Assembly: GCA_963736565.1 (NCBI GenBank)
Contig: CAVTOW010000002.1
Span: forward strand, 807,497 to 871,496
DNA length: 64,000 nt
Reading direction: 5' to 3'
DNA from: an uncultured Alphaproteobacteria bacterium
GTDB lineage: Bacteria; Pseudomonadota; Alphaproteobacteria; Rhodobacterales; Rhodobacteraceae
A program made the position numbers and the translations under genes. The notes beneath the pieces are model-generated. The model was not told the origin of the DNA. It did not search any database and saw only the letters and a list, made by a program, of their open reading frames with translations. Shown here piece after piece: positions 1,412-52,006 of the stretch. Position 1 is the stretch's first letter; each line of letters starts with the position of its first letter.

Positions 1412-2671
1412 ATGCGTCGGGTGGTCGTCACAGGGCTGGGCATGGTCACGCCACTGGCCTGCGGAGTTGAAGAAACATGGACGCGGCTGATTGCCGGGCA
1501 ATCCGGTGCCGGGCCCATCACGCGCTTCGATCCGGTGAACGTCCTGACGCAATATGCCTGCGAAATCCCGCGTGGCGACGGCAGTGACGGCACGTTCAAC
1601 CCCGACGACTGGATGGAACCGAAGGACCAGCGCAAGGTCGATGACTTCATTCTCTACGGGATGACGGCGGCCGTGCAGGCGGTGGCGGATTCGGGCTGGG
1701 TTCCGCAGACGGACGAGGATCGCGAGCGGACCGGCGTGATGATCGGGTCGGGGATCGGCGGGCTGTCCTCGATCGCCGAGACGGCGGTGCTGATCAAGGA
1801 GAAGGGGGTGCGGCGGGTGTCGCCCTTCTTTATTCCGGGCGCGCTGATCAATCTCATTTCCGGTCAGGTGAGCATCCGGTTCGGCTTCAAGGGACCGAAC
1901 CACGCGGTCGTCACGGCCTGTTCCACTGGCGCGCATGCGATCGGGGATGCGGCGCGGCTTATCCAGTGGGGGGATGCCGACGTGATGGTGGCGGGTGGTG
2001 CGGAAAGTCCGATCAGCGAGATCGGGATCGCGGGGTTCAATGCCTGCAAGGCGCTGTCGACCAAGCGTGCCGACGACCCGACCAAGGCGAGCCGTCCCTA
2101 TGACGCCGACCGCGACGGATTTGTCATGGGCGAGGGTGCGGGTGTGGTCGTGCTGGAGGAATACGAGCACGCGCGGGCGCGGGGCGCGAAAATCTATGCC
2201 GAGGTGCTGGGCTATGGCCTGTCGGGCGACGCCTATCACATCACCGCGCCGTCCGAGGATGGCGAAGGCGGGTATCGCAGCATGGCGATGGCGCTGAAGC
2301 GGGCGGGGCTTCAGCCGTCGGACATCGACTATATCAACGCCCATGGCACGAGCACGATGGCCGACACCATCGAACTGGGGGCTGTGGAGCGGCTGATGGG
2401 CAATGCAGCAGCGCAGGCGACGATGAGCTCGACCAAGTCGAGCATCGGGCACCTGCTGGGCGCTGCGGGCGCGGTGGAGGCGATCTTCTGCGTGCTGGCG
2501 ATCCGCGACCAGATCGCACCGCCGACGATCAACCTTGATAACCCGGCGGTTGAGCCGAAGCTCGATCTGGCGCCGAACGCGGCACGGAAGCGCAAGATCG
2601 ACGTGGCCCTGTCGAATTCGTTCGGGTTCGGCGGGACGAATGCCTCGCTGGTTCTGGGGAAAGTCGGCTGA
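1412..2671 (+). CDS. fabF: 3-oxoacyl-ACP synthase II
   Basis: MRRVVVTGLG, TACSTG, NAHGTST, GHLLGAAG, SNSFGFGGTN. Confidence 0.96.
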   Translation: MRRVVVTGLGMVTPLACGVEETWTRLIAGQSGAGPITRFDPVNVLTQYACEIPRGDGSDGTFNPDDWMEPKDQRKVDDFILYGMTAAVQAVADSGWVPQTDEDRERTGVMIGSGIGGLSSIAETAVLIKEKGVRRVSPFFIPGALINLISGQVSIRFGFKGPNHAVVTACSTGAHAIGDAARLIQWGDADVMVAGGAESPISEIGIAGFNACKALSTKRADDPTKASRPYDADRDGFVMGEGAGVVVLEEYEHARARGAKIYAEVLGYGLSGDAYHITAPSEDGEGGYRSMAMALKRAGLQPSDIDYINAHGTSTMADTIELGAVERLMGNAAAQATMSSTKSSIGHLLGAAGAVEAIFCVLAIRDQIAPPTINLDNPAVEPKLDLAPNAARKRKIDVALSNSFGFGGTNASLVLGKVG

Positions 2672-3870
2672 TGTGGCGTTCGCTCGCCTCGAACGCGCTG
2701 ACGCTGTTCGTCGTCATACTGGCGCTGGTGGCGGGCTTGCTCGCCTGGGGGCGGCAGCAGTTCACCGGACCGGGGCCGCTTGCGGAAGCGGTCTGCGTCA
2801 AGGTGGAGCGGGGGGCATCGCTGGCGCAGGTGAGCCGACAGCTTGAGTCCCAGGGCGCGGTGAGCGATGCGCGGATCTTCCGCATCGGGGCGGATTATGC
2901 GGACAGGGCGGCGCAGTTGAAGTTCGGCAGCTACCTCGTGCCGCCTGGGGCGTCGATGAGCGAGGTCCTCGAGATCGTGACGGCGGGTGGCCAGTCGACC
3001 TGCGGGCGCGAGGTGAATTTCAGGATCGGCGTGGCCGGGGCGGATGTGGTGCTGCGCGAGCTGGACCCTGCGAGCGGCGATTTCGTGGAGGTGGTCAAGT
3101 TCGACGCCGCCGGTGTCATCCCGCCAGAGTATCGGGATGCAGCCGAGGAAGGCGACCTGCGCTGGCGCGTGACGCTGGCCGAAGGTGTGACGAGCTGGCA
3201 GGTGGTCGACAGCTTGCGGCGTGCCGAATTCCTGACGGGCGAGATTGCCGAAGTGCCGCCGGAAGGGTCGCTTGCGCCAGACAGCTACGAGGTAGATCGG
3301 GGCGCCGACCGGGCGGTTCTGCTGGCCGAGATGGGGGCGCGTCAGGAGCGTATCCTTGCCGACCTGTGGGCCGCGCGCGAGGACGGCTTGCCCTATGCCA
3401 GCCCCGAGGAGGCGTTGATCATGGCCTCGATCGTGGAGAAGGAGACCGGCGTTGCCGAAGAGCGTCGTGTGGTGGCGAGCGTTTTCGTCAACCGGCTGGA
3501 AGAGGGGATGCGTCTGCAGACCGACCCGACCGTGATTTACGGCATCACGCGGGGCGAGGGTGTGCTGGGCCGAGGGCTGCGGCAGAGCGAGTTGCGCCGG
3601 GAAACCCCGTGGAACACCTATGTCATTGCCGGACTGCCTCCCACGCCGATTGCCAATCCGGGACGGTTGAGCATCGAGGCGGCGCTGAACCCTGACACGA
3701 CGGACTATCTGTTCTTCGTCGCAGACGGAACCGGTGGCCATGCCTTCGCCGAGACACTCACCGAGCACAACGAAAACGTCGCCAAATGGCGCGCGATCGA
3801 GGCGCAGCGTGAGGCCGAGGGGTTGGCCGTGCCGGAAGAGGGAACGGGAACCGGGGTGTCCGCTCCGTGA
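2671..3870 (+). CDS. mltG: Endolytic transglycosylase MltG (YceG)
   Basis: N-terminal TM segment, ASIVEKET, MRLQTDPTVIY, GLPPTPIANPG; coupled to fabF. Confidence 0.93.
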   Translation: MWRSLASNALTLFVVILALVAGLLAWGRQQFTGPGPLAEAVCVKVERGASLAQVSRQLESQGAVSDARIFRIGADYADRAAQLKFGSYLVPPGASMSEVLEIVTAGGQSTCGREVNFRIGVAGADVVLRELDPASGDFVEVVKFDAAGVIPPEYRDAAEEGDLRWRVTLAEGVTSWQVVDSLRRAEFLTGEIAEVPPEGSLAPDSYEVDRGADRAVLLAEMGARQERILADLWAAREDGLPYASPEEALIMASIVEKETGVAEERRVVASVFVNRLEEGMRLQTDPTVIYGITRGEGVLGRGLRQSELRRETPWNTYVIAGLPPTPIANPGRLSIEAALNPDTTDYLFFVADGTGGHAFAETLTEHNENVAKWRAIEAQREAEGLAVPEEGTGTGVSAP

Positions 3871-3898
3871 TCTCCGCCACTCTCGCGACGCGCAGATG

Positions 3899-3914
3899 TT
3901 AACAAAACCATAAC
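3899..3914 (+). promoter_or_regulatory. CtrA-like box in GTA promoter region
   Basis: TTAA-N7-ATAAC (consensus TTAA-N7-TTAAC), a second TTAAC at 3925, and a TTGACT -35-like hexamer at 3955. Confidence 0.45.
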
Positions 3915-4009
3915 GCACAGAGCGTTAACAGGCTGATCTAAAACGATTTTCGGATTGACTTTGCGTTCGGCCTGTGGCATCACTTGTTGCATGCTGGAAG
4001 AAATGGGCG

Positions 4010-4041
4010 AGCGGCGCGGGAACACCCGGGGCCGCTTTTTT
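4010..4041 (+). terminator. Intrinsic terminator in the GTA leader upstream of g1
   Basis: GCGGC-G-CGGG-AACA-CCCG-GG-GCCGC hairpin followed by TTTTTT. Confidence 0.65.
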
Positions 4042-4087
4042 CATTTCAGTCGGATCGCGGAGGTGCTGGGCGTGGGTGCGGCAGTCA

Positions 4088-4414
4088 ATGACAGAGAACT
4101 TCTCTACCGGGGACGAGGCGCCGGTCGATCTTCTTGCGGCGACGGAAGATCTTTACCGGGAGGCGGCGGAAGACCTGGCGCGCGCCCGGCGTGGCCTGCG
4201 GAAAGGAAAGATCGACGAGGCGAAGCTTGCGGTCCAGGCCGTCAAAGACCTGAAGCTGGCGTTCCAAATGGTGATGGATGAAAGGGCCCGCGTTGAAAAA
4301 CTCCGCAAGCAAATCGCAGGCGTCGTCGGCGACCATGCCCTCGATTTTGACGCCGCCCGGACTGAGATCGGGCGCCGCCTGGCTTGCCTCCGCGACGCCG
4401 GAGGTGGTGGATGA
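4088..4414 (+). CDS. GTA small terminase subunit (RcGTA g1-like)
   Basis: C-terminus ALDFDAARTEIGRRLACLRDAG typical of g1; overlaps the large terminase start; follows mltG. Confidence 0.8.
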   Translation: MTENFSTGDEAPVDLLAATEDLYREAAEDLARARRGLRKGKIDEAKLAVQAVKDLKLAFQMVMDERARVEKLRKQIAGVVGDHALDFDAARTEIGRRLACLRDAGGGG

Positions 4415-6791
4415 GTTCCTGTCGGGGCTGGACGACAATGCGCTGCTGGCGCTGCCCTGGATGTTCGAGTTCTGGGCCTTGCCGCATCAACTGCCACCGG
4501 ACGGCGCCTGGAAGACCTGGGTGATCATGGGGGGGCGCGGCGCGGGCAAGACACGGGCCGGCGCCGAGTGGGTTCGTGCCGAAGTCGAGGGCGCTGGACC
4601 CGAAGACCCCGGACGGTCACGCCACGTGGCCCTGGTTGGAGAAACCATCGATCAGGTCCGCGAGGTAATGGTTTTTGGCGAGAGCGGCGTTCTTGCGTGT
4701 TCGCCGCCTGACCGGCGACCGGAATGGGAGGCCGGACGCAAGCGTCTTGTCTGGCCGAACGGGGCCGTCGCGCAGGTGTTTTCGGCGCATGAGCCGGAAA
4801 ATCTTCGCGGGCCACAGTTCGATGCGGCCTGGGTGGATGAACTTGGCTGTCCGGCAGTGGACAAGGGCACGAACGAGCCAAACAAGTTCATTGATCCCAA
4901 ATCTTCTGAGTCACGAGCGCCCAGGTTTTCCAACGGTCGCCGCGATGACCTCATTCAATTGCAATACCTGCGTGCGATGACCGAGTTCTGGTCAACCGAA
5001 GTCAACAACCCGTCTGCTCCGATTCTCGGTGGACGGATGGTGGACATGTCTCGCGCGCATGTCTGGGCGTGGGATGCGAGGCCCTTTCCTGTCTTTCCAA
5101 ACCTTTCTTCCGCCTGGAGCGACGGCGACAACTATGCGCGCGGCCACTGGTTGAACGGTCGCGCCACCGGTCAACTCCTTTCCTCCGTGGTTGGCGATCT
5201 TTGCGAAAGATCGGGCGTGACCGAGTTCGACACGTCACGCCTGTTCGGCTTCCTTCGCGGCTATGCACTTGCAGAGATCGAAACGGCGCGTTCCAGCCTG
5301 CAACCTCTGATGCTTGCATTCGGTTTCGACGCGGTCGAGCGCGATGGTGTGCTGACTTTCCGGTCGCGAGACGCTCGGGTGAATGCCGCCATTGACGCGA
5401 ATGACCTGGCGGTTTCGGACGAGATCGAAGGTTCTATCGAGTTGACCCGTGGGGCCGAGACGGAACTGACGGGCAAGGTGATGCTCGGCTATGTCGAGGC
5501 AGAAGGCGATTTTGCCACGCGGCAGGCTGAGGCCGTTTTTCCGTCGGGAAACACTAGTGCGGTTTCGCAATCAGAAGTGCCGTTGACTCTGACGACTTCG
5601 GAGAGCCGGGGCATTGTGGAGCGTTGGCTGGCTGAGAGTCGGATCGCCCGAGACAGCATTCGCGTCGCCTTGCCTCGTTCACACCTTGCCATAGGTGCGG
5701 GAGACGTCATTTCTTTTGGAAGCGCGCGGTATCGCATCGACAAGGTGGAGCAGTTTGACCAGCAGCTCTTGGATGGAACGAGGATCGAGGCGCAGAGCTA
5801 TCAGGCGAGTGACGCTGTAGAGGAGCGACCGGTCGCGAAACCTGCCATGGCTCCGGTCCCTGTATTCTCCACCTTTCTCGACCTACCGCTCTTGGCTGGT
5901 GACGAAGACCCGCAAGCACCAAGAATTGCAGTAAGCGCGACACCATGGCCGGGTCCCGTGGCGGTATGGAGTTCGGCCAGTGACAACGGTTACGCGCTTA
6001 ATCGGTTGATCTCAGTTCCATCTGTTGTTGGTGTGACCGAAGCGCCGCTCCGCATCGCTCGGCCCGGAATGATCGACCGAGGGGAGCCGCTGCGGGTTCG
6101 GGTTTTTGGTGGAGCGATCAGTTCAGCGGAAGCTCTTGCTGTCCTGAACGGCATCAACGCTGCAGCCATCGGCGACGGGACTGCAGACCGCTGGGAAGTG
6201 TTTCAGTTCACAACCGCCGAATTGGTCGGGCCGCAGACTTATGAGCTTAGCGGCCGGCTGCGAGGGCAGGCAGGAAGCGACGCCGCCGTTCCTGAAACCT
6301 GGCCGGAAGGAAGCCAGATCGTCTTTCTGGATCGCGGTCCGGAGCAGATTGCACTGCCCCTCTCGGCCCGAGGTCTCGAACGGCACTATCGAATCGGCGC
6401 AGCGGCGAGAGGCTATGATGATCAGGCAGTCATGGTCACACGCGCGGCATTCGTTGGTATTGGCCTCCGGCCCTATCGTCCAGGACACCTGCGGTTCGCC
6501 AGGAGTGACGTGGGCGATGTTCACTTGAACTGGATCAGACGCACCCGCATCGACGGTGATGGATGGCAGGCGACCGACGTTCCGCTTGGCGAAGCTACCG
6601 AAGCCTATCTCGTTCGTGTGTGGGTCGGGCCGGTGTTGGCCCGCGAGGCTATCGTGACTGAGGCCAAGTGGACCTACAGCTTCACACACCAAATGTCCGA
6701 CGCGGCGTTGGCGTCATGCGAGATTGAAGTGGCGCAGATTTCTGAACGTTTCGGGCCCGGACCGTTTGCCCGTGTCAGGGTCGCGGGGTAG
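4335..6791 (+). CDS. In-frame fusion: GTA large terminase ATPase N-terminus (about 170 aa) + C-terminal half of GTA g15 megatron/baseplate protein (about 650 aa)
   Basis: LPHQ, Walker A GGRGAGKT and Walker B FDAAWVDE run directly into ELGCPAVDKGTNEPNKFIDPKSSES, WDARPFP, GHWLNGR, WIRRTRIDGDGW and VAQISERFGPG, which are g15-type motifs. Confidence 0.85.
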   Translation: MPSILTPPGLRSGAAWLASATPEVVDEFLSGLDDNALLALPWMFEFWALPHQLPPDGAWKTWVIMGGRGAGKTRAGAEWVRAEVEGAGPEDPGRSRHVALVGETIDQVREVMVFGESGVLACSPPDRRPEWEAGRKRLVWPNGAVAQVFSAHEPENLRGPQFDAAWVDELGCPAVDKGTNEPNKFIDPKSSESRAPRFSNGRRDDLIQLQYLRAMTEFWSTEVNNPSAPILGGRMVDMSRAHVWAWDARPFPVFPNLSSAWSDGDNYARGHWLNGRATGQLLSSVVGDLCERSGVTEFDTSRLFGFLRGYALAEIETARSSLQPLMLAFGFDAVERDGVLTFRSRDARVNAAIDANDLAVSDEIEGSIELTRGAETELTGKVMLGYVEAEGDFATRQAEAVFPSGNTSAVSQSEVPLTLTTSESRGIVERWLAESRIARDSIRVALPRSHLAIGAGDVISFGSARYRIDKVEQFDQQLLDGTRIEAQSYQASDAVEERPVAKPAMAPVPVFSTFLDLPLLAGDEDPQAPRIAVSATPWPGPVAVWSSASDNGYALNRLISVPSVVGVTEAPLRIARPGMIDRGEPLRVRVFGGAISSAEALAVLNGINAAAIGDGTADRWEVFQFTTAELVGPQTYELSGRLRGQAGSDAAVPETWPEGSQIVFLDRGPEQIALPLSARGLERHYRIGAAARGYDDQAVMVTRAAFVGIGLRPYRPGHLRFARSDVGDVHLNWIRRTRIDGDGWQATDVPLGEATEAYLVRVWVGPVLAREAIVTEAKWTYSFTHQMSDAALASCEIEVAQISERFGPGPFARVRVAG

Positions 6792-7037: not shown

Positions 7038-7850
7038 ATGGCCGAAACGAAGAAGAAAGTCGCAACCGTCGATCCGGTCTGGCAGCGTATCGCCGAGGAA
7101 GCTGTAGAAGCGATCCGGTCGGAACCGCTGCTGGGAGGGCTCATCCATTCGAGCCTGCTCCATCATCCCAGCATGGAACGGGCTCTGGCCTACAGGTTCT
7201 CGCTGAAGCTCGCGTCGGGCGAGATGAGCGAGCAAATTCTGCGTGAGATTGCTGACGAGGCTTACGCGGTCGATCCTGATCTCGGGCAGGCCGCGCGCGC
7301 CGATCTGGTCGCGGTCTATGATCGCGATCCGGCGTGCCATCGCTTCTTGCAGCCCATTCTGTTCTTCAAGGGCTACCAGGCGGTCCAGGCGTATCGGGTC
7401 GGCCACTGGCTTTGGCGTAGTGGCCGAATCGATCTTGCGTATTTCGTTCAAATGCGGGTCTCGGAAGTCTTTGGGGTCGACATTCATCCCGCCGCCAAGG
7501 TGGGGCGTGGTATCATGATCGACCACGCGCATTCGATCGTCATCGGCGAGACGGCAGTCGTTGGCGACAATGTCTCGATGCTCCACTCCGTCACCCTTGG
7601 CGGAACGGGCAAGGAGGACGGTGACAGGCATCCCAAGATCGAGGACGGTGTCATGATCGGTGCTGGGGCAAAGGTTCTCGGAAACATACGTGTCGGCCAC
7701 TGCAGCCGTATCGCCGCAGGCTCGGTCGTTTTGCAGGATGTTCCGCCATGCTCGACAGTTGCGGGTGTTCCTGCACGTGTTGTCGGCGAGGCAGGCTGCG
7801 CTCAACCATCCGTGACCATGGACCAGTTGATCCATTCCGCGGCGAACTGA
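7038..7850 (+). CDS. cysE: Serine O-acetyltransferase
   Basis: DRDPAC, VDIHPAA, IDHAHSIVIGET, GGTGKEDGDRHPK. Confidence 0.95.
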   Translation: MAETKKKVATVDPVWQRIAEEAVEAIRSEPLLGGLIHSSLLHHPSMERALAYRFSLKLASGEMSEQILREIADEAYAVDPDLGQAARADLVAVYDRDPACHRFLQPILFFKGYQAVQAYRVGHWLWRSGRIDLAYFVQMRVSEVFGVDIHPAAKVGRGIMIDHAHSIVIGETAVVGDNVSMLHSVTLGGTGKEDGDRHPKIEDGVMIGAGAKVLGNIRVGHCSRIAAGSVVLQDVPPCSTVAGVPARVVGEAGCAQPSVTMDQLIHSAAN

Positions 7851-7889: not shown

Positions 7890-9212
7890 TCAGGCCAGCA
7901 TCGCCATCGGGTTCTCCAGATTTTCGATGATCGCCTGGAGGAACTCGGCCCCCAGCGCGCCGTCGATCACCCGGTGATCGACCGACAGCGTCATCGACAT
8001 CACCGTCGCCACGCCGATCGTCCCATCCGCCAGCACCACCGGCTTCTTGATCCCGGCGCCGACCGCCAGGATCGACCCATGCGGCGGGTTGATGACGGCG
8101 TCGAAGTTCTCGATCCCCATCATCCCGAGGTTCGAGATCGCGAAGCTGCCGCCCTGATATTCGTGCGGCGCCAGCTTCTTGGTCTTGGCCCGCGCCGCCA
8201 GGTCCTTCATCTCGGCCGACAGCGCCGACAGCGACTTCTCTGTCGGCATCGCGCAGGACCGGCGTGAACAAGCCCGCCCTCGACCGCCACGGCCACCGCC
8301 ACGTCCGACGGCTTCAGCCGCAGCATCCGGTCGCCGGCCCAGACGGCGTTCGCAGTCCGGCACCGCCTGCAGCGCCAGCGCGCAGGCCTTGATGATGAAG
8401 TCGTTGACCGACAGCTTCACGCCGCGCCCTTCCAGCTGCTTGTTCAGCGGCTCGCGGAACGCCATCAGCGCGTCCAGCCGCACGTCGCGGCGCAGGTAGA
8501 AATGCGGGATGGTCTGCTTGGCCTCGGTCAGCCGCGCCGCGATCGTCCTGCGCATCCCGTCCAGCGGCACCTCCTCGTAGGCGCGGTCCGCGATACATCT
8601 TCATCACGGTCTCGGCCGCCATGCCGGTGCGCACGCCGCCGCCGCTGCCGCCGGGGCAGGGGCCGCGGCCGCGGCAGCCGCGGCGCGACGACCGCAGGCG
8701 CCGGCACCGGCCTTGCGCGCCTTCGACATCCGCCTTCACGATCCGGCCATGCGGACCCGAGCCCTGCGACCTGCGCCAGGTCGAGCCCCTTCTCCGTCGC
8801 GATCCGCCGCGCCAGCGGCGAGGCGAACACCCGCGTCGCCGCACCGTTGCCGCTACGGCGGCCGGGGCAGCCGCAACGGGCCGCGGCGACGGTGCGCTGC
8901 GCCGGGGCCGCGGCCTTCGGCGCTGCGGCAGGCGCTGCGGCTGCGCATCGGCGCCGCCGCAGCGTTCTCGCCTTCCTCCAGCAGCACGGCGATCGGCGTG
9001 TTCACCTTCACCCCCGCCGTTCCCTCGGCCACCAGGAGCTTGCCGACGATCCCCTCGTCGACCGCCTCGAACTCCATCGTCGCCTTGTCGGTCTCGATCT
9101 CGGCCAGGATCTGGCCGGACTTGACCGCATCGCCCTCCTTGACCAGCCACTTCGCCAGCGTCCCTTCCTCCATCGTCGGGGACAGCGCGGGCATCAGAAT
9201 TTGAATAGCCAT
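7890..9212 (-). CDS. pdhC: Pyruvate dehydrogenase E2 dihydrolipoamide acetyltransferase (apparent frameshifts)
   Basis: Lipoyl motif [30 protein letters not shown] spread across several frames. Confidence 0.9.
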
Positions 9213-9223
9213 GGCTCTCCTCC

Positions 9224-10613
<1,390 letters not shown>

Positions 10614-10627
10614 GTCGTCTCTCCCCC

Positions 10628-11623
10628 TCAGGCGTAGATGTCGGTCCAAAGCTCGGACAGCGCCGGCTCCGGGCTTTCCTTGGCGAACTCGGCCGCCTCG
10701 TTCACGATCGCCTTGATCTCGCTTGTCGATCGCCTTCAGGTCCTCGTCGCTGGCCAGCCCGCCCTGCAGCAGCAGGTCGCGCACATGCTCGATCGCAGTC
10801 CTTCTCGTCGCGCATCTTCTCCACCTCTTCGCGCGTGCGGTACTTCGCCGGGTCCGACATCGAATGGCCGCGATAGCGATAGGTCATCATCTCCAGGATG
10901 TACGGCCCCTTGCCCGCCCGGCAGTGCGCCACGGCCTTCTCGCCCGCGGCCTTCACCGCCAGCACGTCCATGCCGTCCACCGCCTCGCCCGGGATGCCGT
11001 AGGCCGCGCCGCGCCCATACAGCGTCGTGCGACTTGGTCGACGCGCTTCATGCTCGTGCCCATCGCATACTGGTTGTTCTCGATCACGAAGATCACCGGC
11101 AGGTTCCACAGCTCGGCCATGTTGTAGGTCTCGTAGACCTGGCCCTGGTTCGCCGCGCCGTCACCGAAATAGGCGAAGGTCACGTTGTCATTGCCCAGAT
11201 ACTTGTCGGCAAAGGCCAGCCCGGCGCCCAAGCGGCACCTGCGCGCCGACGATCCCGTGGCCGCCGTAGAAATGCTTCTCCTTCGAGAACATGTGCATCG
11301 AGCCGCCCTTGCCGCGCGAATAGCCGCCCGTCGCGCCCGGTCAGTTCGGCCATCACGCCCTTCGGGTCCATCCCGCAGGCCAGCATGTGGCCGTGGTCGC
11401 GATAGCTGGTGATGCGCTTGTCGCCTTCCTTCGCCGCGGCCTCCAGCCCGACGACGACCGCTTCCTGCCCGATGTAGAGGTGGCAGAACCCGCCGATCAG
11501 GCCCATGCCGTAAAGCTGGCCCGCCTTTTCCTCGAATCGGCGGATCAGCAGCATCTCGCGGTAATACTTCAGCAGTTCGTCCTTCGAGACATTCGACTTC
11601 TCTGGGGCTTTCTTGGTGGCCAT
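10628..11623 (-). CDS. pdhA: Pyruvate dehydrogenase E1 alpha (apparent frameshifts)
   Basis: [38 protein letters not shown]. Confidence 0.92.
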
Positions 11624-31357: not shown

Positions 31358-33177
31358 ATGATGACCGGACAGAGCCACCTGACAAGACGTGGCGCAAGCT
31401 ACTCCGCCCGTATTCGCGTCCCGCTCGATCTGGTCGAGATCGTCGGCAAGACGGAACTGACCAAGGCACTCGGAACCAAGGAACTGGCCGAGGCGAAGCG
31501 CAGGCTCTGGCCGCTCTTGGACGCATGGCAGCGCGAGTTCGACGACCTGCGCGCCCGTCGTCGTCTTGACGCCCGCTGACCAGGCGCATGCTGTCTGGGA
31601 CCACTACACCGGCGCTCTCGACCGAGACGAGGCCGAGCGTGCCCAGCTGCCGGGGGAAGAGGAAATCGCCGCCGCTGAGGCGGCCATGATCAGGAACGCA
31701 CAGACGGGCAAGCTGGACGTGTCCAACAAGCTCGCGCTCCTGGCGGCGACACTCGACTACCGCGTCATCAGCGATGCCCTTGCGGTCAGCGCCACAGCGC
31801 GCGCCGCCAAGCTCGCCGATCTGCGCAAGCACTTGGCAAAGGGTGAGACAGCGTTGATCGCCCACGAGGTTGACGCCTACCTGCACAAGAACGGCCTGAT
31901 CGCTGAGCGCGGCACTCCCGGCTGGATAAGCATCGCCCGTGCCATGATGAGGGCCGAGATTGACGCCCTAGAGCGCACCATAGAGCGCGACGGTGGCGAC
32001 TATACCGGCACACCCCGCGACCCTATCGTGAAGCCAGCGAGCGGCACCGCGCGCGAGGTGGCGAAGCCAGGCGAAGGGATCATGGATATCTTCGAGATCT
32101 TCGCGAGTGAGAACCCGCGCGGCGTGGCGACTGGACAGGGTCAACCAGTGCCGCCGCGATATCGCGACCTTCGTCGATATGGTCGGACCCGGGTTCCCGA
32201 TAGCGAAGATCGACAAGGCCGCCGTTCGGGACTGGAAGCAGCTCCTGGTCAAGTATCCGGTCAAGGCGACAGAAACGAAGGCCTTTGAGGGGATGAACAT
32301 CAGGCAGACGGTCACGTCGAACGAGAAAGTCGGCAAGCCGGTGATCGCGGACAGAACCGTAAACCGATATTTGTCGAGCCTGAGTGCGTTCCTGTCTTGG
32401 TCGGAGAACAACGGCTACCTCGATCGAAACCCGGTTGAAGGTCTTATGCTGAAGAAGGAGATCCAAGACACCCACGGTGCCCTTTAAGACTGAGCAGCTC
32501 ATTACCTTGTTCCGCTCGCCGTGGTTCACCGGTTGTCAGAGTGACGCCGAGTGGCGCAACGTCGCCAAACCGGGGAATGTCCTGATCCGGGACCATCGGC
32601 TTTTGGGTGCCGTTGATCATGCTCTTCTCTGGGGCGACGCCCGGTGAGATCGCGCAACTGGCGGTCAGTGACGTGCGGGAGGCGCATGGGCGACTGGATC
32701 TTCCACATCACGACTGAAGGTGATGACTCACGATCAGGGCAAGGCGGTGAAGACCGCCGGTTCCATGCGCGTCGTCCCGGTGCACTCCGAACTGATCCGG
32801 CTTGGCTTCATCGTCGTACCATCAGAGACGTCAGATTAGGGTGGCGTGTCAGCTGTTCACCGGCGCGGTGCGAAATGGTCGCGGCCAGATCATGACGGAT
32901 GTGTCGCGCGAGTTCGGGCGTTACCTCACGAGGATTGGCTTAAACAGGGTAGGGGCCTGTCGCTCTACTAGCTTTCCGGCACGGGGCCGCTGATGCACTG
33001 CGGCGGGCCGGCTTCCTTGATCAGGAGTTCGGTTTCATTCTGGGGCATACCGAGGCGACGATGACAGGCAAGTATGGACAGCTTCCGCAAGGAATGCTCG
33101 ATCAGCGCGTGAAGCTAATCGATGCGATCAACTATCCTGGGCTAAACCTTTCGCATCTCCACCATGTGTGCCGTTGA
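31358..33177 (+). CDS. Tyrosine integrase with DUF6538-like N-terminus (frameshifted)
   Basis: YSARIRVPLDL..ELTKALGT; RPGEIAQL, KTAGSMRVVPVH, YSFRH, ILGH..MTGKYG across frames. Confidence 0.85.
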
Positions 33178-33499
33178 TTGATACGATCGCTCATCGAAGT
33201 GCGAAATGGTGAAGCCTCGATACCAAGGTCGGGGTCGGTTGGGATCTGGGCCAAAGGGCACCGTCTACACTTTCTGCGAGAGCAACGGACTTCCCCCGGT
33301 GCGCAAGCGGTCGCCGTCTTGCTGATCTCGACCTGGCGTCGACGCTGATCGGCAGGCATCGCCTCAAAATGGGCACTTCGAAACAAGCGTAGATCGTAGG
33401 TGCTCAGAAGCGATCCGGTGAGCGTTGCCCAGTTTCTGTAGGACATTTGGGCAGGACTGGGTGAAATGGGCGCTGGCGGCTCGCTAGTGGAGTCTTGGG

Positions 33500-33682
33500 G
33501 CCATTCCCAAGTCATGGCCGGATCGAACTGGATCGTCAGCGAGCCGCGGCGCTGCAGCGCTTGGTTGTCGCTGGGACAGTTCCGGGTCTTATAGGTCGGG
33601 GGTGTCGGTCTGCTCATGCCATCCAGCTATCACGCTCCGATTCACGAGATTAATCTCTCACTGGATTTGTGCAACAGAGCCC
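33500..33682 (-). mobile_element. IS5-family (IS903-like) 5' remnant
   Basis: End GGCTCTGTTGCACAAATC; N-terminus PTYKTRN..NQALQRRGSLTIQFDPAMTW, then truncated. Confidence 0.75.
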
Positions 33683-33837
33683 CTGCAGAATAAAGTCTCG
33701 GCTGATTGCAAAAAATCCGTCAGTCCCGACACCCAACTTGCTATATGTAGAACTAAGGAAAAGACCGGCTTCCTGAAGCCAATACGCTGAAGACGGTCGC
33801 CCTGCCTTACTGAAATCGCAGACCTATGGAGACCGCA

Positions 33838-34609
33838 ATGACGAACACCAAAATCGAAACCGTCCGAACGGCAACAAGAAACCCTTCACGACCGCATCAG
33901 GCCGGAGAACTACGGGTTTTGCGTTAACGCCGCCGATGCCGATGAGCTGTTGCTTGCAATCATTACCGACTACGCGCTGAAGATGAAGCGCTATGGATCG
34001 AACGATCTTCCTTATAATCTGAGTGATATCATTCTGGCTGAAGTTCTGGAAGAAATGGGCGGCGGGCGGATCGATCCTTGGCCGGGTCTTACGCGCGCCG
34101 ATCTTCGGCTTCTGGTGCGTGGTAGGACGCGCGGAATTTCCTGTGTCATCCTGAATGCTATCGGCGAGCTCTATTGGGGCTGGGGCGACCAGTGGGCTAC
34201 GAAGGTGGAACAGCCGCTGAGTTTTGAAGAAAAACTTCATGCGGCACATTTCCGCAAGCTGCTTGAGACGGGCAAGGGCAGCAAGGCAGCGAAGGCTTGG
34301 GCGGCGTTCCCCGGCAACATGTCGAAGGTGGCCTTCACCGTCCCGATGGAAGGCGGAACTGAGTTGAGTGGAGTGTATTGGCTTGAAAGCTATGTGCATT
34401 GGGTCAGTGATAAGGCGCAGGCAGATATCAGGGTCTACGTCAGCAACGGTGAAGGCCGTACCGGGCTTGGCCTTCTCAACGGATCAACTGCAACGGTAGT
34501 TGCCGAGGCCGTACTTCGTCAGATGATGAAGGAGGAAGTCGGTCAGTCTATTGCCGACCTCGATGAAGTTAGCGCGAACAACCTTCGTGCCGAGCTCGCC
34601 AAAATCTAA
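33838..34609 (+). CDS. Hypothetical protein (probable indel near 5' end)
   Basis: GGAG RBS and ATG at 33838; long open frame 33842-34609 with protein-like composition; no family recognised. Confidence 0.55.
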
Positions 34610-34882
34610 CTGCCGCCCGAGGTCTCGACTTGGCGCATGCGATGGGTCGCATGCCGCATGCGCCCAGGAGCGGGCCGCTGGGGTGGCAGCTGGTTTTCGG
34701 AGGCCAAGACGCACGAGTGAGGCGACAAGGGCGCTCATCGAGTCTCTCCGTGAGCCCTGGAGCCCTTGCCGATCGCATGCAGGTCGGAAGCGTCGTCGGC
34801 GATGTGCTTGGCATTCAGTTTATCAGCCAATGCGGCCGCTGAAGAGCGGTAAAAGAAAGCGCCTCGCAAGCGTTCAGAATCG

Positions 34883-35815
34883 TCAGAACCGACCAAAGTT
34901 CGGCAGGCTTTTCATCAGCGCGTCATCTGTACCAAAAGTCGGCTCGGCTGCTGGTTCGACCGACTTCTCAGACCCTCGCTGGTTGAGTACTTGGAATGCC
35001 GCATCAAGGTTCTTACTGGCGACGGGATCAACTGCGAAGCAATCAGCCGAAGAGTGAAACACCTCGGCTGGTTCGGCGTCTACCTCTGCTTGCAGCTCTT
35101 GCCGACGCTGCAGTTCTTCAATCGCACGGAGTCGCGGCTGCCGAACCGATGCTTTCGTCCAGTCACGGTTCCACCCTGTTGCGATCCCACGGTCGTTCGG
35201 TAGCTCCGCGAAATCCCCGCGGCGAAGCTTCTCGTGAAGCGGGTTCTCCGCCAGGACGTCCGCGATTTGCTCGATGATTTCGGCGGCACGATTTTGCCTG
35301 CTCCGCACCGATGCCGCAGACGCAGCTCGCTTGTCACTGGCGAGCCCAGCACTACGCCTGAAGCCTTTTTCTTCGCCAGTCCACGTTTGGTGCCTTCACT
35401 GATCCTCCGAAGCTGAGACTTTCCTATTTCCACAAGGTGATGCATCTCGGAAGAACTTGCACCGGTGGGATCGTTTAGCGCGAGGAAGGGGATATTGAAG
35501 CGCTCCATGATCTCCATCACTTGCGTCAGCTTCTCCGGTTCGCGCGTTGACTCGGAAGACATCAGTGACAACCAATGTAGCCTGCCGGGCTTGCGCGTCC
35601 TTCAAGGCATCTTTCAGACCGGTGCGCTTCGCCATGTCCATCCCAGCACCGGAGGTGACGTCACTGTGGATGCTCAGAAGCTGAATTCCACGACGACGGC
35701 ATTTGACGCGCAGCACTTCTTGCTGGCGTTCGAGGTCACCTACATCCTGCTGCCTGTCAGACGACACACGGACATAGCCCACGCCTTGTATTCGTTCGTT
35801 GGACGTGTCGTTCAT
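34883..35815 (-). CDS. Serine recombinase/resolvase family (two frameshifts)
   Basis: GYVRVSSDRQ..LERQ, SDVTSG, RTGLKDAL, ISEGTKRGLAKKKASGVVLG. Confidence 0.8.
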
Positions 35816-36409
35816 TGAGGCTTTCCTAAGAAGTGGGACGGAATGCATACGGTCGAAGAACAAGACGCAATACTCAACTTGCTCATCGTCCCGAAGCGGA
35901 CGGTTTACAATTGCATCCTCATCGCGGCAAGATGAATTGCGGGCCTTGCAAGTGAAACGAGCTTGGGCGCTGTTGGTGGTCCGAAGCGAAGCTGCGCGCG
36001 CCGGTTGTGGTGTACGTGCTTGGCTACGACAAATGCCATAAAGGACTCACCTACGACTTGCGCGCAGCGAGGTCTAAACTGGAGACGTGGGTTGATGCGA
36101 CATCATCAAACGCGAGGGCCGTCGCCGAAATCAGCCGGGGCCGATGGCATGACGGGATTGCACTTCGACCGGAGGGCGCGACCACGGATGACTGCTTCCG
36201 GACACACGGCCGCGCAGAACGCAGGGAGGTCGAACGGGCGATGGGCCGATAGCGTCGAACGACTTGCTGATCGTCAAGGGCGGAAAGCGGCCGTTCGGCA
36301 CGATCTTTAGTTGCGTGGCCGCGTTCCCGAAAGCGGCCATTCCCTAGAGGGGGATGGGCCTGAAATCCAACCTTATCAAGGTTAAGCCATTGATTTAAAA
36401 TGATCTATC

Positions 36410-36555
36410 TACGACGGCGGGAAGCCGATGAAGAGCATCACCGCCAGACGGATGATCTCGGGGCTTGTCTTGCAGTAACAAAAGGGGGCTGGGGCCGGGC
36501 ATGCGCGAGGCTAAGCGGGAGCTCAGCCCCGCTCAAACGACGTGCTGACAGGCCC
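36410..36555 (-). mobile_element. IS6-family 5' remnant
   Basis: Minus strand translates to PFCYCKTSPEIIRLAVMLFIGFP*; end GGGCCTGTCAGCAC. Confidence 0.7.
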
Positions 36556-36682
36556 TGTGCACGGGTCATTTGCACGTCGCCTGAAATCGCGTCATTTCTG
36601 CTCGTGCTGCGCGCAATCTTTCGGCTGGACTCGGGATCGCTCAGGATGGCTCCTCTCTCTGCCGTAGGGCTCACATGATTTC

Positions 36683-36831
36683 TTGACGGACACGATGGCG
36701 CGTGTAACGTGTGAGTGACGTGGCGTTTGATCTCAATGGCGAGAGAGCCACGTTCTCAAAAACACTCATACCGACAAGGCCGGATGGCAACGTAGCCCCA
36801 AGCGCTGAGGCGCATGGGGCTTGTTCGTTTT
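36683..36831 (+). promoter_or_regulatory. Promoter plus ANTAR-target leader RNA with overlapping terminator
   Basis: TTGACG-N16-TAACGT; hairpins TCTC-AATGGC-GAGA and GGC-AACGTA-GCC; terminator GCCCCA-AGCGC-TGAG-GCGCA-TGGGGC-TTGTTCGTTTT. Confidence 0.75.
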
Positions 36832-36840
36832 GGAGTTGCA

Positions 36841-38001
36841 ATGGGCGCGACATCGATCCCCCTGGGGCTGATTTTCTCGCAAGAGGGCCCCTATGCTGCG
36901 GTCGGCACGACGATGTTTCGTGGCGCGCAACTTGCGGTCAGCGAAATTGCCGATGATCCGGACTATGCCTTTCACTTCGACGTCCAGTCAGTCGAACCCA
37001 AGGGACGGAATGACCGCTATGTAGCGGGTGCACAGGCTCTTTTGTCGAGACCGGGCCTGACGCATGTGGTGGGTTGCTACACCTCCTCCAGCCGCAAGGA
37101 AGTCTTGCCGGTCTTTGAAAAACTGGACGCCGTATTGTGGTATCCATCGCACTACGAAGGCTTCGAGACGAGCGAGAACATCGTCTACACAGGCGCCGCC
37201 CCCAACCAGCATGTGGTGCCGCTGACCCATTACATCCTGTCCGAAGGCGGACGACGGGCCTTCATGGTGGGGTCCAACTACATCTGGGCGTGGGAAAACA
37301 ACCGCATCATGCGCGAGGTTCTGGGCCGCAACGGCGGTCAGGTTCTGGGTGAGCGCTATCTGCCGGTGGGCGAGGTCGATGTGAACGAAATGGTCGATCT
37401 GATCCTTCGGCATCGGCCCGATTTCATCTTTTCCACGCTGATCGGCGAGTCGGCCTACAGTTTCTTCCGCTGCCTGCGCCGCAAATGCAGCGATGCGGGG
37501 CTGGATCAGCCCCGTGACCTGCCAGTGCTGAGCTGCAGTCTGGCCGAGTTCGAACTTCCGCTGATCGGAGATGCCAGTGACGGGCATATATCCTCGAGTG
37601 TCTATTTCTCTTCCCTGCAATCGGACGCCAACGCCCGGTTCGTGTCGGCTTGGGAGCGGCATTACCCCGGCGCGGGGCACACCTCGGCCGATGCCGAAGC
37701 AAGCTACATCGCTGTGCACATGCTGGCCCGCGCGATCAGATACGCAGGTAGCGCCGACGCAGAGGCGGTGTTGCAGGCGCTGAGCGCAGTGTCGTTCGAG
37801 GCGCCCCAGGGCTTGGTGCAGATCGACCCCGACATCCGGCATTCCTACCTGTGGCCCCGCATTGGACGGTCGCGCTCCGACGGGACGTTCGAGATCCTGC
37901 ACGACAGCAGCAAGATGGTGCGGCCCGATCCCTATCTGGTCTGGGAGCCGCTGTCGCCGACCGCGCTGACAGGCGAAAAAATGCTGAGGGTTGTGTCATG
38001 A
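36841..38001 (+). CDS. amiC: AmiC-like cytoplasmic amide sensor/negative regulator
   Basis: VVGCYTSSSRKEV, LWYPSHYEGFE, GAAPNQH, VGSNYIW; no signal peptide; overlaps the ANTAR gene. Confidence 0.8.
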   Translation: MGATSIPLGLIFSQEGPYAAVGTTMFRGAQLAVSEIADDPDYAFHFDVQSVEPKGRNDRYVAGAQALLSRPGLTHVVGCYTSSSRKEVLPVFEKLDAVLWYPSHYEGFETSENIVYTGAAPNQHVVPLTHYILSEGGRRAFMVGSNYIWAWENNRIMREVLGRNGGQVLGERYLPVGEVDVNEMVDLILRHRPDFIFSTLIGESAYSFFRCLRRKCSDAGLDQPRDLPVLSCSLAEFELPLIGDASDGHISSSVYFSSLQSDANARFVSAWERHYPGAGHTSADAEASYIAVHMLARAIRYAGSADAEAVLQALSAVSFEAPQGLVQIDPDIRHSYLWPRIGRSRSDGTFEILHDSSKMVRPDPYLVWEPLSPTALTGEKMLRVVS

Positions 38002-38603
38002 CGACTCCGGTCCGGTCGAATTTCCGTGGCGCGCGAGCCTGGGTTGCCCTGCCAGCAGATCAGAACCGCGAGGTTCTAGCGCGCACTCTGGAGCGTCTTG
38101 GGTTGCAGGTCACCGAACGCGACCCCGACGCCACCGATTTTGTTGCCGGTTCGCAGGATGTGGCCTTTGTCGATTCTGACCAGGATTTCATCGTCCTCGG
38201 TTCTGACATCCCCCACATCGCGTTGATCGGAATGGAAGCCCCGAGCAGGCTCGGGCGCGTGGTACGCCACCGGGCGGCATCGGTGCTGATGAAGCCGGTC
38301 CGCGCAACGGGTGTCTACACGGCACTCTTCCTGGCATTCAACGAACATGCGGTCCGCCAGCGCGAGCTGCTGGACCGCGAAAACCTATCTCGCCGCGCCG
38401 AAGGGCGGCGAGTTGTGGTCAAGGCCATCCTCAAGATCATGAAGGATAACGATCTTTCGGATGACGATGCCTATAGGGAAATGCGCGTTGCCAGCATGGC
38501 ACGACGCATCTCCATCGAAGAATTCGCGGCCCAGATCGTGGCCTCGTCAACGTCCTCCATGCGTCTCGCCGGCACAGCAGCGCATGAGCGGAAAACCAAG
38601 TAA
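37998..38603 (+). CDS. amiR: AmiR-like ANTAR antiterminator
   Basis: Pseudo-receiver domain plus RRVVVKAILKIM..LSDDDAYREMRVASMARRISIEE. Confidence 0.82.
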   Translation: MTTPVRSNFRGARAWVALPADQNREVLARTLERLGLQVTERDPDATDFVAGSQDVAFVDSDQDFIVLGSDIPHIALIGMEAPSRLGRVVRHRAASVLMKPVRATGVYTALFLAFNEHAVRQRELLDRENLSRRAEGRRVVVKAILKIMKDNDLSDDDAYREMRVASMARRISIEEFAAQIVASSTSSMRLAGTAAHERKTK

Positions 38604-38623
38604 CCATGACAAGGAGGACTACG

Positions 38624-39874
38624 ATGCTCAAGGGAAGTCAACTCGGAAAGGCTCTGCGCCTCGGGGTGGCGATTGCCGCTTTGACCGCGTCAGCGGGTCT
38701 GGCGCAGGACGCCATCAAGATCGGCGTGCTGGAGGACCAGTCCGGCGATTTCGCCGCCGCGACCATCGGCAAGGTGCACGCCATCGAGCTCGCGGCCGAG
38801 GAGATCAACAAGGCCGGCGGCATCGCCGGCCGCCCGATCGAACTCGTCGTCTATGACACGCAGTCCGACAACACCCGCTATCAGGAGTTCATGCGCCGCG
38901 TGCTGCAGAAGCGACAAGGTCGACGTGGTCTTCGCCGGCTTCTCGTCGGCCTCGCGCGAGGCCTACCGCCCGATCGTCAACCAGTTCGACGGTCTCGCCT
39001 TCTACAACAACCAGTATGAAGGCGGCGTGTGCGACGCCAACATGATCGTCACGGGCGCGGTGCCGGAGCAGCAGTTCTCCACCCTCATCCCGTGGATGAT
39101 GGAGAAGTACGGCAAGAACGTCTACACGATCGCCGCCGACTACAACTTCGGCCAGATCTCGGCCGAATGGGTGCGCAACATCGTCAAGGAGAACGGCGGC
39201 ACCATGGTCGGCGAGGAGTTCATCCCGCTCGGCGTCTCGCAGTTCTCGCCAGACGATCCAGAACATCCAGACGGCCAAGCCCGACTTCGTGGTGACGCTG
39301 CTGGTGGGCGCCGCGCAGGCCTCCTACTACGAGCAGGCGGCTGCCGCGAACGTGGGCCTGCCGATGGCCTCCTCGGTCAACGTCGGCCAGGGCTACGAGC
39401 ACAAGCGCTTCACGCCGCCGAGCCTCGCCAGACATGTACGTGACCACGAACTACATCGAGGAAGTCGACACGCCCGAGGGCAAGGCCTTCCTCGACAAGT
39501 TCAAGGCCAAGTTCCCGGATGAGCCCTATGTGAACCAGGAAGCGGCGAACTCCTACATCGCCATGAACCTGTACAAGCAGATGGTCGAGCGCGCCGAACG
39601 GCTCGACCAAGCGCGACGACCTCGCGCAAGATCCTGGCCAAGGGCGATGTCTGCTTCGACGGCCCGTCGGGCAAGGTCTGCCTCGATCCGAAGAGCCAGC
39701 ACATGTCGCACACGATCTATCCTCGCCCAGGTCGACGACGGACCACACGATCGAGCTTCCCGAAGGTCTGGGACGGACATCAAGCCCTACTGGCTGGGTG
39801 AGGCCGGCTGCGACCTGACCAAGAACGACCCGAGCGCGCAGTACACGCCGTCCAACCCGCCGCCGAAGAACTGA
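38624..39874 (+). CDS. Urea/short-chain amide ABC substrate-binding protein (UrtA-like, frameshifts)
   Basis: Signal peptide, IKIGVLEDQSG, YNNQYEGG, AADYNFGQ. Confidence 0.82.
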
Positions 39875-39888
39875 TCGGCGCTGACGAT

Positions 39889-39912
39889 CCGGGGGCGGCT
39901 GACCGCCCCCGG
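39889..39912 (+). other. Perfect hairpin after substrate-binding gene (likely mRNA stabiliser)
   Basis: CCGGGGGCGG-CTGA-CCGCCCCCGG with no U-tract. Confidence 0.5.
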
Positions 39913-39985
39913 TCCCATGCCGGCTTCGCCAAGCCGGGCCGATGGCAGGCCCGACACGGGGCAATGCCGACAGGGAGATCGGCGG

Positions 39986-40870
39986 ATGCTTGTCGAGCTT
40001 CGTTTTCGCATCGCTCTACCAGTTCGGCGACGCCTTCGCCTTCCTCGTGCTCGCGGCGATGCGGGCTGGCCGTCATCTTCGGCATGATGGGGGTCATCAA
40101 CCTCGCCCATGGCGAGTTCATCATGTGCGGGGCCTATGTCACCGTCTTCGCCGTGCGCGCGGGCCTGCCGCTTGCCGCTCGCCATTCTCTGCGGCAGCCT
40201 GGTCGCCGGGCTCGTCGGCATCGTGCTCGAGCGGCTGGTGATGCAGGCATCTCTATCACGCGACCGCTCGACTCGATCGTCGCCACCTGGGGCGTCAGCC
40301 TGATCGCCACGCAAGGCATGCTGATCCTGCTTCGGGTCCACCATGCAGGGGGTCGGCACGCCGCTCGGCAGCTTCACCGTCGGCGGGCTATTCCTATTCC
40401 TACCTACCGCGCTGGTGCTGATCGCCGTCGCCGTCCTGCGTGCTGGTGCTGCTCTATCTGCTCTTCAACAAGACGCGCTTCGGCGTCCTCGCCCGCGCCA
40501 CGATCCAGGTGCCGCACATGGCCAGTGCGCTCGGCGTCGACACCGGCCGGGTCTACACCCTGACCTTCGGCCTCGGCGCGGCGCTCGCCGGGCCTGCACC
40601 GGCGGGCTCTATGCGCCGACCATGACGCTGGTGCCGACGATGGGCGCGACCTTCATCGTGGAGAGCCTTCGTCACCGTCGTGGTCGGCGGCGGCGACGTC
40701 TTCCTCGGCACGGCACCGGCGGCCGCCATTCTGGCGGTCGATCAAGGCGGGCCTGACCTCCTGGCAGGGCCAGCTCTTCGGCCAGATCGGCCTGCTCGAT
40801 CGCCGTCATCATCGTCATCCGGGTGCTGCCCGGGCGGCATCTCCGGCTGGATCTTGAGGGACGCAAATGA
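39986..40870 (+). CDS. ABC permease (UrtB/LivH-like, frameshifts)
   Basis: GLAVIFGMMGVINLAHGEFIM, IVATWGVSL. Confidence 0.78.
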
Positions 40871-51590: not shown

Positions 51591-52006
51591 CTCGGATCCT
51601 TTCGGCTTCGGTGTCGTATGAAGAAATAGGTAACATCACTGCAGCACTTTGGCGCTCCACTTAATGAAACGTCCGCGCGTTCCAGTACCGTCAGAGCGTG
51701 TTTGCGGTCGAACCCCTTTGCCGACTGATCGCCCTAGCTTGTCAGTGCCGGCTGCAAGATATGCGCACCACCCGATAAGAGCGGCGGCCTGCGCGGCCTT
51801 GGAACTTTCGCAGTTTACGAGAGACAGCGCGGCGTCACCTGCACGGAACACCTCGGCTCGGAGTTCGGCAACGTCGAACGTCCAGCCCATGGACCCTGCT
51901 GTCTCAAACTGATCGCAGTAGGCGGTCAGTCGCTGACTTTTCCGAAATGGCGCCAACTCGTCTAGGTGACGGTAGATCCCGCCTACTGGCGAACACCCAT
52001 GAGGAG

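Follow-up and report, generated by a model that had tools for sequence, protein, structure and literature searches.

A recurring in-frame deletion that joins the terminase and megatron genes of RcGTA-type gene transfer agent clusters

THE REMNANT LOCUS

Between mltG (yceG) and cysE, in a 64,000-nt stretch of DNA from an uncultured member of the Rhodobacteraceae (assembly GCA_963736565.1, contig CAVTOW010000002.1, positions 807,497 to 871,496; 'the window', whose numbering is used below), lies what is left of a gene transfer agent (GTA) cluster of the type known from Rhodobacter capsulatus (RcGTA). In congeners G005, G006, G014 and G015 the same flanks enclose a full g1-g15 cluster. Here they enclose only g1, the N-terminal part of the large terminase gene g2 and the C-terminal part of g15, the 'megatron' gene, the last two forming a single open reading frame (ORF), g2::g15, of 818 codons without a stop (4335-6791; other possible starts are at 4278 and 4407, and a 794-aa form is present in the protein collection). 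The fusion is an in-frame deletion of about 11 kb with the second half of g2, g3-g14 and the first half of g15 gone; the Glu-to-Glu distance between g2 and g15 is 11,200-11,347 bp in three intact congeners. To this extent the initial annotation, which saw an intact fusion ORF left by an in-frame loss of some 11-12 kb that took the nuclease half of the terminase and spared g1 and the region upstream, was right. The single event that it envisaged has turned out to be many, with the same junction formed independently in numerous lineages. The features are as follows.

2671..3870, + strand: mltG (yceG), left flank of the GTA locus (Pfam YceG; same flank in intact congeners)
3871..4087, + strand: region upstream of g1, retained in the sequence; by its position, likely the promoter of the GTA cluster
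4088..4414, + strand: g1, small terminase-like; its 108-aa product has 65% identity to that of the ORF in g1 position in intact congener G005 and no Pfam match, and the gene overlaps the start of the fusion
4335..6791, + strand: g2::g15 fusion ORF, 818 aa (Pfam, NCBIfam)
4335..4838, + strand: terminase-derived part, from the N-terminus through Walker A (4530-4553) to the Walker B Asp (83-95% identity to congener g2; Terminase_6N)
4839..4840, + strand: crossover, GA of the Glu codon common to g2 (W-x-D-E) and g15 (F-T-E) (conspecific intact allele; codon statistics)
4839..6791, + strand: megatron-derived part, with the last third of the TIM barrel, Phage-tail_3, Rcc01698_C and the normal C-terminus (Pfam, NCBIfam)
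7038..7850, + strand: cysE, right flank, intact (SATase_N, Hexapep)

In R. capsulatus, GafA binds upstream of g1, as described in PMC6363796. The locus is a derived remnant of such a cluster: its genes are orthologous, sit at the conserved place between mltG and cysE and nest among those of intact congeners. With only g1, the N-part of g2 and the C-part of g15 it falls short of a functional head-tail cluster, in which at least nine RcGTA homologues (a large cluster in PMC5721377), portal, capsid and tail genes among them, would be found together.

In the fusion protein WVDELGC begins at residue 166 and the codon of Glu169 occupies 4839-4841. Residues 1-168, which end with the Walker B Asp, are large terminase of RcGTA type; the rest, beginning with Glu169, is the second half of the megatron. 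Searches with hidden Markov models, as the initial annotation had proposed, recognize both parts: Terminase_6N at 64-170 (only profile positions 2-105 of 215, with the Walker A and B motifs present), GTA_TIM at 160-255 (limited to profile positions 204-299 of 299), Phage-tail_3 at 314-472 and Rcc01698_C at 564-663. No Terminase_6C match to the C-terminal nuclease domain was found in the ORF with Pfam, the terminase half having lost that domain and the remainder of the ATPase. The NCBIfam megatron profile (NF048004) aligns from 640 to 1298 with fusion residues 161-815 at 749.9 bits, below its cut-off of 800, so that the fusion lacks the score (>800 bits) and length (~1300 aa) of a whole megatron; the megatron-derived part also matches the RcGTA g15 chain 6tba_8A, over the aligned stretch 638-1302.

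A second copy of the fusion is not present in the genome. Nor were g3-g14 found elsewhere in it, whether by tblastn with a congener's proteins or by portal, capsid and TIGR02218 family searches, and since the genome is only 61% complete by markers their absence rests mainly on the bridged junction, to which we now turn.

THE JUNCTION AND ITS TWO ALLELES

Could the junction have been created by faulty assembly, the genome being an error-rich long-read one? Frameshifts are found in many neighbouring genes and completeness is low, yet such an artefact has next to no chance of being the explanation. Of the four short-read runs compared first, two, each from a different other study, have contigs that read through the junction with no gap, X1 (4677-5751, 14 letters different) and X7 (4502-4994, 11 letters different), and the same junction is found in isolate genomes, including the complete chromosome L136. 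Misassembly, a concern of the initial annotation, was rejected on these grounds. An X8 contig at 4811-4983, slightly under the bridging rule, has 0 differences to the window. Chimerism of the contig, considered for the low G+C content at third codon positions of the g15 half and cysE, was also rejected: intact congeners have the same trend.

The undeleted allele is present in the same species, in X2 and X9 (both of one study, a third). Its left contig tracks the window to 4845 and continues as terminase; its right contig is identical to the window from 4839 (4839-5250, 0 differences) and is preceded by the N-side of g15. In this intact allele the Glu codon is GAG in g2 and GAA in g15, and since in the window GAA comes after the g2 Asp codon, the crossover was inside GA. 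A sister cluster also holds both forms, P0002 being fused and P0282 a whole g15, with 640 of 650 residues identical. The deletion allele is young and coexists with the intact allele within a species, which fits the 'recent GTA loss' that had been offered as one of two readings of the locus.

THE SAME JUNCTION ELSEWHERE

Relatives were searched, as also proposed at the outset. The same junction is present in 17 of 400 other genomes of the family, which were sampled at one genome per genus. A junction-blind search, with the terminase N-part only and among proteins >525 aa, returned the same join in 115 of the best 120 of 477 matches, the other five being three different g2-g15 joins, one other fusion and one whole terminase; a junction-centred protein search, biased by design toward the junction, gave it in 118 of its best 120. 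Two THAF9 proteins, P0085 and P0086, probably represent a single gene annotated with two different starts. A pattern scan of GTDB (43 of 64 parts) found at least 119 loci, 101 of them with both halves, the latter including Phyllobacterium, Chelativorans and Mesorhizobium (Rhizobiales) and Rhizomicrobium. Surveys centred on carriers, with the centre included in the counts, gave 8/51 for Ruegeria, 7/51 for Roseovarius, 4/18 for Thioclava and 3/41 for Phyllobacterium and relatives. In the window's own genus the junction is in 1 of 16 genomes, accompanied by two different deletions (G007, G010).

Other GTA deletions exist and their ends are scattered. L015 (from G010) and L296-L303 join g2, g3, g4 or g5 to g12, g14 or g15, and L013:5156-7924 (from G007) is a different in-frame g2::g15 fusion, with terminase to GPQF and g15 from about residue 547. 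G540 and G555 have pieces of g2 and g15 in one open frame. P0121, on a 4-kb contig, has the terminase N-part joined to a PF00873 transporter domain and is perhaps another deletion or chimera. In G521:C1, G532:C4 and G534:C11, g2 and g15 are 80-310 kb apart on opposite strands, which suggests that GTA clusters have been split by inversion.

INDEPENDENT ORIGINS

A tree of the g15 half (147 rows, 70 of them fused; rows <500 aa and duplicates were left out, and L004, counted as intact, is the other fusion of G007) places fused genes among their intact congeners with 20 state changes. A single fused clade is rejected with an approximately unbiased test p-value (p-AU) of 4.55e-93 for a 33-row subset, picked after the first tree, that has 13 fused rows. 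In 8 of 9 pairs a fused gene and its closest intact relative have the same residue after Glu. Immediately past the junction, two fused Thioclava alleles agree with intact haplotypes, each with a different one. With fused rows so scattered and junction-adjacent residues of host type, a single inherited fusion gene is, by sequence comparison, excluded. The single origin with long-term retention that would mark a domesticated gene is thus not what is found.

What of one ancient deletion allele passed between species by homologous recombination through its conserved flanks? It would require just one illegitimate event, and on both sides the flanking motif ranks with the most conserved in its gene. 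But the bases next to the junction are host-type, in the window (identical to the conspecific intact allele at 4839-5250) as in the 8 of 9 pairs, the fused pattern was not found in the viral collection, and no phage record spans the junction, so that we regard such spread as very improbable. Carriage of the fused junction on phages was rejected on the same viral-collection and phage-record findings.

PLACING THE CROSSOVER

The initial annotation ascribed the deletion to microhomology at shared Glu-Leu ('EL') codons. In this species the parents do share 6 of 7 bases at the site, but in 61 of 110 fused proteins Glu is followed by Tyr, the terminase having Leu there; across nine comparisons the parents share 2-8 nt, often only GA(R), overlaps of 2-3 nt being frequent; and between g2 and g15 there are, in every one of 12 intact genomes, 353-862 exact repeats of at least 7 nt, hundreds of them better than the one used. 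Microhomology was rejected as a general cause, and an ordinary one-off microhomology deletion, hard to square with recurrence at one codon, has only a very slim probability. Around the sites the parents are no more alike than background in most pairs.

Synonymous positions are more telling. Where Leu follows Glu, the Glu codon is GAA in 30/49 fused genes, 31/52 g15 and 26/74 g2 (p=0.006), and the Leu codon is CTG in 21/49, 18/52 and 51/69, respectively (p=0.001), in tests that count kin as independent; fused alleles track g15 at both the Glu wobble and the Leu codon. If both parents have Leu, the protein would be no different had the crossover been 3' of the Glu wobble, and a match of at least 3 nt is available there in 8 of 17 pairs that differ at the wobble. 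Placing half of the crossovers 3' of the wobble makes for a disfavoured model (p=0.036); placing a quarter there does not (p=0.17). These positions are suggestive of a crossover inside GA, 5' of the wobble despite the longer matches 3' of it, and from this we infer a cut at the level of DNA. A join at the in-register Trp codon was not found among the proteins collected.

IS THE JUNCTION A SITE OF RECIPROCAL EXCISION?

A fixed short core, here the GA of the Glu codon, is what site-specific excision would show, and overlaps of 2 bp are characteristic of serine and IS110-type recombinases. One can envisage a dedicated recombinase with a 2-bp core excising the segment from the second half of g2 to the first half of g15 as a circle in some cells, the empty site then being inherited or passed to neighbours in GTA particles; the collapsed locus (~2.7 kb) would fit one particle, which the intact one would not. 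Programmed excision of this sort is nonetheless improbable. A metagenome scan gave 0 reciprocal joins, against 36 real cases in 37 control-pattern matches for the fused join; none of 27 viral pattern matches was GTA, and no reciprocal join was among the best 120 of 1270 long terminase-C proteins, searches that could miss a transient, non-replicating circle. There are no conserved arms at either site, and RcGTA is stated in PMC9552610 not to excise and to be without att sites. A search of this genome for two recombinase families found no IS110 transposase and two resolvase matches without a link to the locus. A partial resolvase-family match lies in the window at 35549-35782, ~30 kb from the locus.

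THE PROTEIN, ITS SELECTION AND ITS COMPANIONS

The initial annotation's other reading was a domesticated ATPase-baseplate chimera. The ratio of non-synonymous to synonymous substitution rates (dN/dS) to the nearest intact gene has a median of 0.105 for fusions (n=15) and 0.089 for intact pairs (n=46; p=0.07; rows with dS >1.2 excluded). For seven remnants of the other deletions it is 0.055-0.166 where computable (6/7), and since these are equally low the low values reflect young alleles and are no sign of domestication. The fused branch has the higher N/S in 12 of 14 triplets, which share rows, the excess being small. Fused run X1 differs from the window in the g15 part by 7 synonymous and 5 non-synonymous changes, too few to judge selection. 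The chimera may or may not have been domesticated.

Repeated selection is the main rival account. A rare illegitimate join could have yielded an advantageous hybrid, for example a dominant-negative decoy for the terminases or baseplates of GTA-like phages, that huge populations re-evolve in soft sweeps. The join is in frame and on a Glu conserved in both proteins, which we take to be catalytic in each. Walker A and B residues are invariant in 115 aligned fusions, the frame is open in 55 of 64 GTDB alleles, one half or the other is present in 150 phage records, and in an AlphaFold model the C-terminal domains are predicted to fold with high confidence. On the other side, protein-level selection cannot fix a synonymous crossover, thousands of alternative in-frame joins would leave the set of domains unchanged, and the dN/dS of fusions is no lower than that of intact pairs, with the remnants of other deletions alike. 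The model has a predicted local distance difference test score (pLDDT) below 50 at residues 38-71 (the P-loop region), at 170-197 just after the junction, and at 244-255 and 270-277; it suggests no hybrid sheet, and a fold search gave baseplate-type matches only, among its top rows. The one RNA run compared with the window, X16, has a contig at 5104-5250 only and none across the junction. On balance repeated selection of a chimera is a rather unlikely account.

Genes that would work with a GTA are of interest here. In 55 genomes the DUF6456 gene, presumably gafA, and GTA holin genes are kept in all and DUF2793, which we assume to be the tail fibre, in 49. Broken copies of the DUF6456 gene occur in 3 of 32 carriers and, among genomes with other deletions, in 4 of 8 (p=0.02), a difference that speaks for a selected chimera; among intact genomes the figure is 1 of 15. 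Retention of accessory genes favours function or youth alike and singles out neither. In carriers G352, G225, G324, G238, G138, G319, G283 and G087 a DUF2793 gene lies directly 3' of the fused gene. The window genome's own DUF6456 gene (G000:C2:926859) is frameshifted, probably by an assembly indel error.

AN INTEIN LEAD FOR THE LEFT END

Three GTA-like terminases (P0206, P0210, P0267) are interrupted by an intein at W|C-D-E, two codons ahead of the Glu, and in viral contigs that have this W|CDE intein an HNH_3 nuclease is encoded out of frame. Among the phage terminases concerned are L450:9923-12160 (its HNH at 10666-11205), L590 and L591; most have the out-of-frame HNH gene, and L590 has a 149-aa mini-intein. 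Terminase inteins with out-of-frame homing nucleases are described in PMC4422536 and bioRxiv 10.1101/2025.01.02.630785. A matrix of 47 intein-free phage sites ranked the host g2 site first in both of the two clusters where that site was located. An intein nuclease could, speculatively, define the left end of the deletion at most. A megatron intein at the right end was rejected: 76 of 80 g15 loci of the viral collection have the plain motif.

NEIGHBOURING GENES

From 7890-11400 and onward in the window, the pyruvate dehydrogenase genes and many others are frameshifted, probably by assembly indel errors. A ferritin-like (Dps-type) gene before fabF (826-1308), a GAF-PAS-HWE kinase gene (48182-49690) and a baeRF-family gene (51947-53134) are ordinary-looking. 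G001, G002, G005, G010, G013 and G015 have second, distant g15 homologues (34-37% identity) that are probably prophage-borne.

A PRECISE DELETION OF GTA CLUSTERS?

The deletion itself, its recurrence, its youth and a crossover inside GA are plain. That the recurrence is precise to the base probably speaks for a precise DNA-cutting route over chance decay. More specifically, we give about an even chance to the fusion being a repeatedly formed GTA-null allele that arises from an enzyme-defined cut at the Walker B codons, joined to the Glu codon of g15. On this reading a nuclease would cut at the terminase Walker B codons, a speculative candidate being the out-of-frame HNH nuclease of the phage terminase inteins inserted two codons upstream of the Glu; the broken g2 end might then anneal to a look-alike stretch in g15, with selection for an open frame perhaps helping the joining. 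Carriers would be unable to make GTA particles and still able to receive them, and the fusion protein would most likely be a by-product. PMC9552610 reports that cysE1 is needed for optimal GTA receipt, and cysE is retained at the deleted locus.

Several points weigh against this. The cutting enzyme is hypothetical, and precision at the right end is accounted for neither by an enzyme cut nor by a selected chimera or reciprocal excision. Conserved DNA arms were not found, the wobble positions at both sites varying freely, and hairpins and pairing between the g2 and g15 sites were rejected, none being outstanding. The other deletions share neither end, save that the left end in G007 is seven codons upstream. 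The W|CDE intein is a rarity, found in 8 viral contigs of which 4 are one family; megatron inteins were not found with two patterns, one giving 0 matches and the other 9 chance ones; and the g15 site is only a moderate look-alike in the matrix, ranking 4-256 of 32,000-40,000 and in the top 2.8% in Arg/Tyr-type g15, yet it is alleles of Tyr type, whose g15 matches the matrix poorly, that are commonest among fusions. Most fused frames are open (55/64 GTDB alleles), and of the broken ones, which in themselves speak for this reading (9/64 in GTDB and 4/24 in metagenomes among alleles with full flanks), some may be due to long-read errors. The counting of kin as independent in the codon tests belongs here too. 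Finally, GTA lysis genes lie outside the cluster (PMC6854486), so that the escape of carriers from lysis is uncertain and a simple cheater benefit is weakened.

A bolder and more doubtful proposal, which we put forward only tentatively, is that a dedicated route, triggered by a phage-borne or GTA-linked nuclease, deletes GTA clusters base-precisely between two non-homologous conserved codons and generates GTA-null cheaters at a high rate in every lineage, the hybrid protein perhaps acting as a decoy against GTA-like phages.

How does this relate to what is known? The locus is that of RcGTA and its homologues (mltG/yceG-g1-g2...g15-cysE) and both halves are orthologous, but unlike the RcGTA cluster it is without g3-g14 and the nuclease of the terminase, the megatron barrel is reduced by two thirds, and no particle is possible. 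It resembles the 'small clusters' and the pseudogenized and lost GTA clusters of PMC5721377 and PMC10883770, where structural genes are recurrently lost in many lineages; recurrent GTA loss and cheaters are discussed in the latter. Passages of those papers deal with clusters that decay or are lost; neither a junction that recurs to the base nor a fusion in frame figures in them, and the word 'fusion' occurs 0 times in both main texts. The portions consulted of PMC11409702 and PMC13236601 have no bearing on the junction.

Prophage att sites and skin-type gene-interrupting elements are the familiar cases of removal by precise excision, and a fixed crossover with a very short overlap recalls them; here, unlike there, no cluster recombinase, arms or circle were found, and two different genes are joined with none restored. 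The likeness to terminase inteins with out-of-frame homing nucleases lies in their insertion, in GTA-like phage terminases, two codons upstream of the left breakpoint; but homing inserts an intein, and at the deleted GTA locus there is no intein and an 11-kb host segment has been lost instead. No link of terminase inteins to GTA loss was found in the literature, and no paper on this junction, supplements lying outside that search; the small-cluster maps of PMC5721377 may include such loci. Loss and decay of GTA clusters were thus already known, and what is new is the polymorphism within species, the placement of the crossover from synonymous sites, the dN/dS control from remnants and the intein lead.

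Fused proteins carry the names 'megatron' or 'phage tail protein' in databases, a matter for annotation. Of wider import is the long-standing question of why GTAs persist though their producers die, in which the case for cheaters has come chiefly from decayed clusters. The fusion provides one GTA-null allele, typable by PCR and present in ~4% of sampled family genomes, that re-arises across lineages and coexists with the intact allele within species, and cheater dynamics are thereby measurable in cultured strains and metagenomes. A multi-kilobase deletion that repeats to the base in at least three orders and involves neither homology nor conserved arms fits no mechanism identified: it is either a precise-deletion route that has gone unrecognized or the repeated convergent birth of one chimeric gene.

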